Shown here piece by piece: positions 52,812 to 57,049 of a DNA stretch of 64,000 nt (the first letter of the stretch is position 1; every line of letters begins with the position of its first letter). Location of the stretch: UHGV virus genome UHGV-0293664; one strand, written 5' to 3'. The position numbers were made by a program, and so were the translations under genes. The DNA is from a virus. The notes under the pieces were generated by a model. That model was not told where the DNA came from and searched no databases. It saw only the letters and a list, made by a program, of their open reading frames with translations.

Positions 52812-53075
52812 ATGAAACGCCTTGATCAGCTCAAATTAGTTCAATATATGGCTTATCGTGTTCTTGAAGTCCAGAAAGGTAGCAAAAAAGAGGTTTGCGA
52901 GAAAGCTTATAAGATCTTCACTCGCAAAAAAGATGACTGGATGCTACGCCAGACCAAAAAGGCTGACATCTTGGGGTACCTGGAAGAAGAGATCCGACTT
53001 GAAGAGCAAGAAGAGATCCGCCGTAGTGAGGCAGATTATCAGGCCGCTTGGGAAAACTGGATGAGCAACAAATAA
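52812..53075 (+). CDS. early protein
   Basis: 87 aa; SD AAAGAGGAAAAA. Confidence 0.75.
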   Translation: MKRLDQLKLVQYMAYRVLEVQKGSKKEVCEKAYKIFTRKKDDWMLRQTKKADILGYLEEEIRLEEQEEIRRSEADYQAAWENWMSNK

Positions 53076-53140
53076 TACAACAAGGTGCACGGTCAGGGGC
53101 TTAAAGCCCCTTGATCACATAAAAATTATGCTATCCCTGG

Positions 53141-53169
53141 TTGACAGGGATCGGCAGTTTTGCTATATT
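53141..53169 (+). promoter_or_regulatory. sigma70-like promoter
   Basis: TTGACA-17 nt-TATATT; -35 embedded in CCCTGG...CAGGG inverted repeat. Confidence 0.6.
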
Positions 53170-53218
53170 CTTTTTTGAAGGGAAGTTGTAAGAAAATTAA
53201 CTAAGAGGTAAAAACACC

Positions 53219-53638
53219 ATGAACATTAAATCTAATAATCCGGCATATAGCTTTGATAACGCTTTTTGTCACGGTCCGGCGGCGAAAGGATTCGAAATCG
53301 ATGGTAAACTAATTATTGTCAATGTTGACGGGGAAGAGGTTGCAGTATATCCGGTGGCAGACGTAAAAAGCCGTTTACAATGCCGCATGGATGTTACCGC
53401 CTATCAGCTTGATCCGGTCCGCATAGTTGCCCTGGTCCTGGAGGAAGAAATTAAAGCCATGCACCATAGCAACAGGTTTATTGGTGACGCTCAGGATAAT
53501 ATGAAGGTGTGCCGCCATAAAGTTAATGAAGTGCTTAAAGAGTACGGCTATAAGGATTTAATGATCAAGCGTGATGAAAAATTCCGCTACCGTAACGACC
53601 TGGCAAATCGGATTTTTGAAATATACGAATCATTATAA
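53219..53638 (+). CDS. early protein
   Basis: 139 aa; SD TAAGAGG. Confidence 0.8.
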   Translation: MNIKSNNPAYSFDNAFCHGPAAKGFEIDGKLIIVNVDGEEVAVYPVADVKSRLQCRMDVTAYQLDPVRIVALVLEEEIKAMHHSNRFIGDAQDNMKVCRHKVNEVLKEYGYKDLMIKRDEKFRYRNDLANRIFEIYESL

Positions 53639-53656
53639 TTTCTTAACTGAATTATC

Positions 53657-53685
53657 AAGGGGCTTAAAGGCCCCTTTCTTTTTGT
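53657..53685 (+). terminator. intrinsic terminator closing the plus-strand early block
   Basis: AAGGGGC-TTAAA-GCCCCTT then TCTTTTTG. Confidence 0.8.
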
Positions 53686-56201
53686 CTGCTCTTCTCCTAC
53701 CATAAACGGCCCTACCTGGCAAGTGGAATAATTGACTAGCCATCAATCCCACACACTGTACAAATATACATGGAAAATAACTATTGCATAATTTTTCATT
53801 GTGTGGTAGCAAGTCCATTTTTACCCGTTTTCTCTCCCAAAATTGCACGTAATGCCGCTATTGCACAAATTTTAACCTGATGCACATCTCCAATATCTTG
53901 TCAACAACTAAAAATCTTTATAAGTCATACACTTACACAGCATCGAAAGCGTGTTCTACGCGAAAAATCGAGTATAACTATAGCCGCCAGATCTCAGAAT
54001 TCACGTACGCACACCATTCTATAGTCCGCTAAGTATTTATTCCAACCACAGAATAACGGAATAGTCAATACCTGTACAAAATAATTATTCGTATAAACTG
54101 CATAACATAAACCTGTCCAGGTGTCAACATTTTTCGTAAACAGTCTGAAATTGTCACGATAGGTTACTATAATCAGAGAAATCTTTAGTCGTCTAATGTT
54201 TACTGCACATAACTATACTGACTGGAATCATTAGATGACTAATAGAAAGATAAGAAATAGTTAACAATGTAATTGTTTTACCTGTAACAATAAGGCAACT
54301 ATGCAAACGAATGTCATGGCGCGACGGAGTCGCGACATAATATAAAAGCAGTAACCATCACCCCCGTGATAGTTTGTCTGCAAACTATTAATCAGATCAT
54401 AGTTGCCTTGTATTTAGTTAATCATGACATAACAAGCAAGGCAACTATAGATCTGCTAATAGTTGCCCTGCTTTTATATTATGTCATATATTATTAACCT
54501 GTTAATTGTCAGCTTGTTGGATGTTAGCTTGTCAATTATTAACTTGCTAATTGTTTTCATGCAAACGAATGTCATGGCTGATTATTTCTATGTAAATGGT
54601 TTGTTCGTAAACAGTTTATTCGGGAACAGTTTATTCGGGAACAGTGAGGCATGCAATAGTAACAATTGTTATTGTATCCAGTGTGTTGAGTATGCCCAGT
54701 GTGTCCAGTATGTCAGACAAGTTTTTCCTCTCTTTGTCAAGTGCCGCATTAAAAATTTACAAACTGGTATGGTAGCATTTTTGCGGCCCTGTTTACATTC
54801 AGCAGTGTATGTATAACCCTTGTTGTGTGGGCGTTTAGACGTCTAGACGGTTGGAAGTCTACAGGTCAATATCTAATCTATTGGCTGCTAACTATATCCC
54901 ACACAAATAGTAAGAAATATGATTGTTATATGCGTAAACTGTAACTCATGTTATCAATCCCTGTATGTATCGCCAGTGGTTCGCATAATGGGTATTATGT
55001 TAAATTGCCAGTAATGATAACGATTCTCACAATGATAGGTATTCTCATTCATCCACACAAAATAGTTTGCAAATGTTGTGCCACTGTGTGAACGGCCTGG
55101 CCTATTAATTTCTCTCACTGCCTCGATATTTGAGAATTGTTATAAGAATGAGAAGTATTCCCATTCCGTCCGCCTGGCAGCGCTCCTGTAGGTCCTGCAA
55201 GGACTCTAGCTGAAAGCTAGACCCTTCGGGCCTCCCTGTAGGTCAGGTCAAAATCGTGGTAGAATTGGGCCTGTTCAGATATTTCTGGCTGACTCTTCAG
55301 GTCTGTGTGGGAAAAGCCAACCTCTCCGGCGGGGCAGGGGGTCATGACGGTAAAATTGCAGGTCAATTAAAAAATTTACGTGGTGTATGAAGCGCTCTTC
55401 AGGTAAGGCAGGTATTATGGGATGAAACCCTCTTCAGGCAATGATATTTGTGGGTGTGATATTTGCTGGAAAGCCAGATATGACGGGACTCCCGGCGGGG
55501 CAGGGGTAGTACAGACAGGGGAAATATGGGGGATGTGGTTGGGGAAATTGATCAGGCAGGAAGAGTATGGAATATGTTACAGATATGTTAAATATGAAGG
55601 TAGGATATTTGTAGGATTTGTGTGTAAAATCAAAGACTTAAGTGGTGTTGTGGTATTTTCTATAAATAATTCAAGTTTAATAGGCAATATTTGTCTCTAT
55701 CCGCTTTGTGTGGTAAACAGATTCAGATGAGATTGGTTTACAGGTGTATACATAATATACAAATTAAAGATACAAGAAACCCCCCTCCCCCTTCGGCTAC
55801 CATTCACCTTTTCCTCTGACTGGTACTTAAACACTTATTCAGACTCTTCAGGTTATCACCCATATATCATATGGCAGTGACTGGTGTCCTCCGGCCCCTC
55901 TTTCGTCACCCGTCCGCTTCGCCATGCTAATGCCATAGCCAAATGTTCGGTTGTTCACCCTGTTCACTCAGGTGTATCTCCATACCCCTTCAAACCGAAG
56001 AGAACAGAAAACCCGAATTACTCGGTAAAAGAAAAGAGAAGAACTTAATTTTATCAGGATAGGCAAGAATGTCAAGGCATGACTGCTCACTAAACAAGCA
56101 AACAGTCATGTGTGGGAGGTAAGTGATTGTGGTGGTAGGAAATTTAGTTGAAAGATGTGTTATAGGTGCTCCAGCACTTTATCCAGGCAGCTAATTGTGT
56201 G
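53686..56201. other. 2.5-kb non-coding, AT-rich, repeat- and palindrome-rich region at convergence of plus and minus transcription
   Basis: No convincing ORF; direct repeats, large inverted repeats and tetraloop hairpins (see findings). Confidence 0.7.
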
Positions 56202-56417
56202 TCAGTCCAGCGGTTCATCCTCTACTTCACTGAAATCAATGTTCATGGTCTCCTCCCAACCATCGATCTCAGCACAAGAGTGGAGTTCTTTAGGGTTTAC
56301 CCCCAAAGCCTCAGCAACAGAGTCTATATTTAACACCTCTGGCAGGTATGATTCATCGAATTCAAGGTAAATCAGGCCACGAGTGTTGTCAGCTCCACCA
56401 AATATCTCTATCTTCAT
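56202..56417 (-). CDS. small acidic protein
   Basis: 71 aa; GAGGAG SD 6 nt upstream. Confidence 0.75.
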   Translation of the reverse strand: MKIEIFGGADNTRGLIYLEFDESYLPEVLNIDSVAEALGVNPKELHSCAEIDGWEETMNIDFSEVEDEPLD

Positions 56418-56538
56418 TGAATCTCCTCTGGAAATGAGAGTGTGAACAGGGTTTCATACGTTACAACACGCTGGAATTATGCACGTTTGCCTCTTCAGGC
56501 CATGCTCTAGCATGAGGAACCTGTGTGGGCTCGGTGCT

Positions 56539-56943
56539 TCATAGTCTACCACCTCTGAACTCTTCGTGCTCAGGCATAATAGAGAACCAGATATCTACGA
56601 TGTCTCCCCACGTCAAGTCATCAGCCTCAGGATCTACCTGGAGCGAAGATGGAGAATCTTCAGAATCGAAGTTTTCCCCTTTCACTGGCTCAGCCAGGCT
56701 ACATATGGTCGTCACTCCTTCAGATGCATGTATGTTGATCATGTTCCACCCGTGAGTATTCCGGCAACAGCCGCTATGGACGTAATGATCATCAGGATCA
56801 CCACTAAAACCTCGGATAATGTTCTCATTGTGTATTCCATATTCTCCAAACGATGTGTGGATACTATCACGAGAGCGGTAATGTGTCAACAGAAACGCCG
56901 CGAGGGTTTGGTTAAAATCCGAGCGTATGGTGATTTTGGTCAA
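56539..56943 (-). CDS. possible acidic protein (start uncertain)
   Basis: 134-aa ORF with TTG at track start; lies downstream of a minus-strand terminator; competing plus-strand ORF looks low-complexity. Confidence 0.35.
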   Translation of the reverse strand: MTKITIRSDFNQTLAAFLLTHYRSRDSIHTSFGEYGIHNENIIRGFSGDPDDHYVHSGCCRNTHGWNMINIHASEGVTTICSLAEPVKGENFDSEDSPSSLQVDPEADDLTWGDIVDIWFSIMPEHEEFRGGRL

Positions 56944-57049
56944 AACGGACGTGCGTTCTCGCTACGCTCGAAATAGAGAGTTGCTTGTAAGCCGCCCTTA
57001 AACGCTCTGTAATGAGATTAACTGCTTAAGGTATGGAATCGTTCACCGG

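Follow-up and report, generated by a model that had tools for sequence, protein, structure and literature searches.

The 64,000-nt stretch of DNA analyzed here (UHGV virus genome UHGV-0293664; hereafter the window) comes from an rV5-like coliphage of the genus Vequintavirus and carries, at 55180–55250, a cluster of short hairpins bracketed by a 10-nt direct repeat. Our results favor a model in which this feature is probably a non-essential 50-bp indel cassette, composed of a 40-nt GC-rich imperfect palindrome and an extra copy of CCTGTAGGTC, which arose by slippage or template switching in the hypervariable flank of the direct terminal repeat (DTR). The place beside a DTR boundary, the presence/absence polymorphism, the flanking direct repeats, the inversion of a hairpin loop and the lack of conservation are directly observed. 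The cassette is located in the concatemer-junction region of the Vequintavirus genome, which holds the chromosome ends. A first-pass annotation had taken the hairpins to point to a structured RNA or a designed-looking DNA hairpin cluster; the cluster is a polymorphic insertion and is not worth pursuing as a small RNA (sRNA) or riboswitch-like element.

Structure and allelic states of the cassette

The cassette and its immediate surroundings comprise the following elements.

55185–55194, + strand: direct repeat copy 1, CCTGTAGGTC; exact match, and the sole copy in phages that lack the cassette
55195–55234, + strand: cassette payload, 40 nt, GC-rich; an imperfect palindrome centered on TCTAGCT-GAA-AGCTAGA
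55235–55244, + strand: direct repeat copy 2, CCTGTAGGTC; exact match
55245–55262, + strand: AGGTCAAAATCGTGGTAG block following the cassette; kept in most relatives in the alignments

The feature begins 11 nt outside the right DTR boundary. An exact search of the 64-kb window finds CCTGTAGGTC only at 55185–55194 and 55235–55244, in agreement with the bracketing repeat noted in the first pass; the second copy reads CCTGCAGGTC in bov10K2, EduardKellenberger and ECO121. Together with both repeats (55185–55244) the cassette has a GC content of 58%, as against 39–40% in its surroundings.

Relatives for comparison were drawn from GenBank records; a search of IMG/VR with the neighboring 71-aa protein gave three loci only. 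A 1.5-kb query (54700–56200) matched 122 phage records, mostly at 93–96% identity, and the window was aligned with 25 of its relatives (26 sequences). Four allelic states are found at the site.

Type A, the window's cassette: ...GCRCTCC TGTAGGTC [CTGCAAGG...GGGCCTCCC TGTAGGTC] AGGTCAAAATCG
Type B, empty site: one CCTGTAGGTC, hairpins absent (rV5, HdK5, FV3, Murica, WM)
Type C, a 33-bp cassette not related to type A: insertion of AGTCGCTACCGGCTCCTGACAGG and a further copy of GCAGCACTCC at a point 10 nt to the left (Gotham, nomo, naswa, TP14, FFH2, S127 BCL3, EPFV3 and one IMG/VR contig)
Type D, deletion: TGTAGGTCAGGTCAAAATCGTGG lost between GGCAG repeats, whereby the AGGTCAAAATCGTGGTAG block is deleted (V18, MaxTheCat and one IMG/VR contig)

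Comparison of types A and B defines a 50-bp indel unit that corresponds to 55195–55244 or, equivalently, to 55185–55234, and the alignment shows the repeat-bracketed segment to be a real evolutionary unit, an indel. JeffSchatz carries C and A in tandem, and the two cassettes are therefore independent events. Of the matching records (120–122, about 120), 32 carry type A, at this locus only; in approximately three quarters of the close relatives, the type phage rV5 included, the cassette is missing or replaced. Across relatives, the segment corresponding to 55165–55285 varies in length from 71 to 154 nt. In distance trees of both flanks the cassette types are intermixed, and a single-nucleotide polymorphism at 55166 (C/T), 9 nt inside the DTR, is found with every cassette type. 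Both patterns indicate recombination or recurrent events at the border between the DTR and unique sequence.

The terminal repeat and its flanks

The chromosome ends could be placed in the window by comparison with records of relatives (a slash marks the cut).

54716–55174, unstranded: DTR, 459 bp, present as a single copy in the window; its boundaries are the predicted physical chromosome ends
55172–55184, unstranded: right DTR boundary and conserved linker, GCC/TGGCAGCGCT; cut between 55174 and 55175
54590–54715, unstranded: hypervariable left flank, from the conservation profile and the alignment; ends TGTCA/GACA at the cut

In the HdK5 record an exact 459-bp repeat is found at either end; pairwise mapping places it at 54716–55174 of the window, and a 459-bp terminal repeat_region is annotated in Gotham. 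Five records (Gotham, HdK5, Pr121LW, YN3 and ECP2303) have an end that maps to 54716, and the records of bov10K2, bov11CS3, bov22_2 and bov25_3 all end at 55175; the start of the bov10K2 record, read as well, is the reverse complement of 55174. The boundaries in the window are thus transferred from relatives that are 93–96% identical to it. A single DTR copy is expected because the assembly is circularized or spans the junction. The region combines a terminal repeat, fixed termini common to independent isolates and non-coding short-repeat arrays beside the DTR, as in a T7-type genome end.

These data agree with published work. Terminal redundancies of 458 bp, called short, were reported for HdK5 and EdH4 (Korf et al., 2019; PMC6563267), and KPP-1, from another genus of the Vequintavirinae, has a 514-bp DTR and T7-type packaging according to PhageTerm (PMC9862379). 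One 2026 paper dissents, inferring headful packaging from PhageTerm for a different Vequintavirus. Placing the predicted genome ends at 54716 and 55174 helps orientation and annotation, as the start point is arbitrary in most of the ~120 records.

The per-column conservation profile of the 26 sequences shows that the DTR is almost free of indels, whereas the sequences just outside both of its boundaries (~54480–54715 and ~55180–55260) are hypervariable and rich in gaps. Repeats of ~9 nt (NNTGTGTCA/TATGTCA) and of ~15–16 nt (GTAAACAGT-type), in variable numbers, make up the left flank, which is practically unalignable among close relatives; it is annotated only in navn and Alma, as a small tandem repeat (repeat_region). 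The right flank is made of reiterated CCTG-N-AGG, GGCAG and AGGTCA motifs, one of which bounds each indel. The contrast between indel hotspots outside the DTR and the near-indel-free DTR itself suggests that end recognition depends on sequences within the DTR or on the short palindromes at the cut sites.

The right-boundary linker is kept in 25 of 25 relatives, and the cut falls inside the short palindrome GCCTGGC (55172–55178). In rV5 the boundary reads GCCAGGC, so that the central base alone is altered and the symmetry is kept. The left boundary (54711–54719) is likewise centered on a short palindrome, TGTCA/GACA, and both boundary palindromes are kept in all relatives. Such palindromes could mark symmetric cleavage sites, a post hoc observation from the sequences. 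The DTR ends of KPP-1 resemble those of the window, with GACGGAC... as against GGCGGAC... and TTGACAAGGAG...TTGTGTT as against TTGACAAAGAG...CTTGTC.

The DTR and the cassette are located in a gene-free zone of ~2.5 kb between gene blocks that converge on it in annotated relatives. To the left, plus-strand genes stop near 53640; to the right, minus-strand genes stop near 56150. The terminator-like hairpins nearest to the feature are at 53657–53676 (+) and 56025–56013 (–). The non-coding character claimed in the first pass is borne out by this zone and by the 50-nt and 33-nt indels tolerated in relatives. A coding reading was rejected, since overlapping open reading frames span only 31–49 aa and indels of 50 nt do not preserve the frame. 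We also rejected an origin of replication: the cumulative GC-skew maximum at ~55–56 kb merely tracks the switch in transcription direction. The authors of the rV5 genome paper drew the same conclusion for the equivalent region of rV5 (PMC3606486).

Hairpins, folding and tests for a structured RNA

Two of the three hairpins described in the first pass are present, GTCC-TGCAA-GGAC at 55192–55204 and TCTAGC-TGAAA-GCTAGA at 55205–55221. Their loops are not tetraloops; each has 5 nt, which falls to 3 nt when the stems are lengthened to 5 and 7 bp. The third, given as CCC-TTCG-GGG, does not exist in the sequence. The element at this place (55222–55230) reads CCCTTCGGGCC and can form 3 bp around a TTC triloop or no more than 2 bp if the loop is TTCG. 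Together the proposed hairpins cover 39 nt, within the 40 nt originally stated. In the minimum free energy fold, for RNA and DNA alike, the region forms one long imperfect hairpin centered on TCTAGCT-GAA-AGCTAGA rather than three separate ones.

The pattern alone is statistically unremarkable: the density of hairpins, the repeated 10-mer and the folding energies do not exceed what chance would give. Across the window, perfect hairpins (stems of 4 bp or more, loops of 3–5 nt) occur at 1.47 per 100 nt, and dinucleotide shuffles of the window contain a mean of 3.4 exact 10-mers repeated within 60 nt. Folding of both strands as RNA, suggested in the first pass, gives energies that are not distinguishable from shuffles (z = –1.0 for the + strand and –0.35 for the – strand); folding as DNA gives z = –1.6 and –1.9. 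Cassette A is marginal (z = –1.9), and neither cassette C (z = +0.25) nor the empty site (z = +0.08) folds better than shuffles do. Hairpin formation is thus not a property of the site.

The first-pass proposal of a small structured RNA, an sRNA or cis-regulatory RNA made of consecutive stem-loops, is highly improbable. Hairpins do exist on both strands, and a weak sigma-70-like site at 55005–55033 (+) could drive transcription through the feature. However, Rfam covariance models give no match at E ≤ 1 in 53000–57000 on either strand, no intrinsic terminator (a GC-rich hairpin followed by a U/T tract) is present at 55180–55250 on either strand, and a promoter scan found no well-placed strong promoter. 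Compensatory changes in the stems, to which the first-pass annotation had looked for confirmation, are absent: the five distinct sequences of type A show no change in any of the 13 stem pairs of the proposed three-hairpin structure, which gives a covariation score of zero. Invariance of 13/13 pairs in itself provides no information for or against a structure. With the element missing or replaced in ~3/4 of relatives, the feature is not a conserved structured RNA. The earlier statement that it is not tRNA-like holds.

The few differences within type A affect loops and repeats only and leave the stems untouched. The loop of the middle palindrome is GAA in most sequences; in nomine and bov10K2 it is TTC, the exact reverse complement, with the stems intact. 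In RNA terms the inversion converts UGAAA to UUUCA, which is at odds with a loop-specific RNA function. The GAA/TTC inversion is the signature of a DNA-level hairpin or of a template-switch inversion, not of a loop-specific RNA. Of the two possibilities raised in the first pass, the DNA-level hairpin thus stands, as the middle loop occurs in both orientations, and the functional structured RNA falls for want of an Rfam match and covariation.

Origin of the cassette

In the model that we favor, slipped-strand or microhomology-mediated template switching among the CCTG-N-AGG, GGCAG and AGGTCA motifs would gain or lose short segments, each event leaving a flanking direct repeat. The setting would be a junction where DNA is nicked, ends are processed and the DTR recombines, and recombination at the border of the DTR with unique sequence would shuffle the variants. 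In single-stranded intermediates the palindrome may extrude as a DNA hairpin, which would explain why the loop is inverted in some relatives. The cassette would have no conserved sequence-specific role and would not act as a structured RNA. At most it could serve as a spacer, tolerant of changes in length, that separates the cut site from the conserved downstream blocks, because the 55165–55285 segment varies so widely in length.

Several observations weigh against this model. The 40-nt payload is not copied from the flanks or from elsewhere in the window, and no donor was found in phages, E. coli genomes, IMG/VR or GTDB genomes. Insertion and deletion are not polarized, the flanks of KPP-1 (Mydovirus) being unalignable with only the DTR end motifs alike. 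That type-A changes spare the stems is weakly compatible with selection on the stems (~5 events, rough P ~0.1), and closeness to the terminase cut site could reflect an accessory role.

Such a role forms the core of an alternative explanation, in which the palindrome would be an accessory cis-element for end processing that helps terminase cleavage or DTR duplication, by fold-back priming or fork pausing at the concatemer junction. The 'hairpin end' model of Chung et al. (1990) reportedly places hairpin ends on T7 concatemers. By this analogy, the location of the feature 11–50 nt from the mapped DTR boundary, the invariance of type-A stems while loops and repeats vary, and a loop inversion read as palindrome folding or template switching in vivo would all fit an end-processing element. 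In addition, rV5 has T7-like DNA polymerase and primase-helicase genes (PMC3606486), and a hairpin intermediate of T7 is on record (Chung, Nardone and Hinkle, 1990, as cited in a passage of PMC4925675). Yet ~3/4 of Vequintavirus records do without the cassette, including HdK5, which has the same 459-bp DTR with identical boundaries. The cassette is therefore not required for forming these ends. Neither the alternative cassette C nor the empty site has significant structure, and the spacing from the cut site to the downstream block ranges from 71 to 154 nt at no apparent cost. We consider an end-processing element unlikely.

A palindromic payload between direct repeats, together with an intact empty site in relatives, is also what a miniature mobile element (a MITE- or REP-like palindromic unit) inserted with a 10–12-bp target-site duplication would leave. 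The payload is GC-rich relative to its surroundings, and another cassette, of different sequence and bracketed by a repeat of its own, is located 10 nt away. This origin is nevertheless very doubtful. Dispersed copies were not found; the cassette is present as a single copy per genome, and, chance matches to the bare palindrome aside, searches of 50,697 phage records, 5,426 E. coli genomes, IMG/VR and GTDB gave the payload at no other place. The search of phage records returned only its own locus and one chance match (E = 9) in a single-stranded RNA phage, and the IMG/VR and GTDB hits of the bare palindrome CTCTAGCTNNNAGCTAGAC are unrelated chance occurrences whose flanks differ. The element is far too short for any coding content, a partner transposase is not apparent, and slippage is the better fit for the microhomology deletions of type D at this site.

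Finally, the cassettes beside both DTR boundaries might be footprints of the end-forming mechanism itself, with nicks or hairpin-primed fold-back synthesis, as the DTR is duplicated at the concatemer junction, making palindromic or microhomology-flanked insertions time and again. We regard this as distinctly unlikely. If true, T7-type packaging in a large myovirus would intrinsically make a zone of hypermutation close to the boundaries. The type-A palindrome would then represent a snap-back product that was captured and that may still help the reaction along.

Comparison with known systems

Like T7, the phage has a short, exact DTR whose ends are fixed (459 bp, as against 160 bp in T7) and which is flanked by reiterated short non-coding motifs; the CCTAAAG arrays of T7, which we checked directly, abut its DTR. 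Unlike in T7, the motifs are others, the phage is a ~137-kb myovirus and the genes converge on the junction, whereas those of T7 read inward from the left end. The feature itself is a polymorphic insertion in the flank and not a fixed member of an array.

Small inversions and indels are known at hairpin-forming inverted repeats, where template switching causes a 'flip-flop' of loops (quasipalindrome mutagenesis). The cassette resembles these cases in that its stems are intact while the loop is the reverse complement (GAA/TTC) across lineages, and in that indels are bounded by short direct repeats; the loop inversion is known here as a polymorphism between phages only. Promoter-early stem-loops (PeSLs) of T4-type phages are mobile regulatory stem-loop cassettes that are present in multiple copies and carry an early promoter. 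Like PeSLs, the cassette is a short non-coding stem-loop unit that is present or absent among close relatives and tied to mosaic recombination; unlike PeSLs, it is single-copy and has no promoter or terminator signal.

The Vequintavirus DTR (published), short-repeat DTR flanks (classical, T7) and loop inversions and repeat-bounded indels (ordinary mutational outcomes) are already known. We found no prior description of polymorphic cassettes beside the Vequintavirus DTR in the available literature. The cassettes add one more example to a known class and do not amount to a new system. They provide natural variants that differ by 0, 33, 50 or 83 nt beside the cut site and are usable in packaging studies.

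Other variable segments and repeats near the DTR

A further indel hotspot was apparent in the alignment and the conservation profile.

55341–55358, unstranded: indel hotspot directly upstream of AGGTCAATT

Relatives have 0, ~17–18 (the window: TCATGACGGTAAAATTGC) or ~55–60 extra nt at this place. The motif CAGGTCAA(A/T) recurs at 54862, 55244 and 55359, the latter two directly downstream of a variable segment.

Five + strand copies of CTCTTCAGG are found within 1.2 kb (55293–56499). The whole window contains six matches, as against 0.58 expected, and none of 100 shuffles reaches six. Two copies are located upstream of repeated blocks that end in CGGCGGGGCAGGGG (55327, 55493) and are highly conserved among relatives. 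On sequence grounds, these blocks are better candidates than the hairpin cassette for protein-binding sites in packaging or replication.

In KPP-1 (Mydovirus, MT438396.1), a short direct repeat, CACCATCTGGGTG ... CACCATCTGCGGTG, is located just outside the published DTR start (~116260–116315), with a start-to-start spacing of ~32 nt. Repeat-bracketed segments beside a DTR boundary may be general in the subfamily.

Among the matching GenBank records, 19 of the MG0656xx series (e.g. MG065654.1, MG065666.1) are named 'Campylobacter phage', with C. jejuni as host. They are 93–96% identical to E. coli Vequintaviruses across the region, and their host labels look doubtful.

To the left of the DTR, the non-coding segment 54250–54600 holds a dense cluster of long repeats. 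It includes a perfect 18-nt inverted repeat (54334–54351 / 54468–54485), a perfect 20-nt direct repeat, ATGCAAACGAATGTCATGGC, at 54301 and 54559, ATAGTTGCC inverted repeats and AATAGTTAAC...ATTGTT repeats. The cluster could be an origin or a regulatory region.

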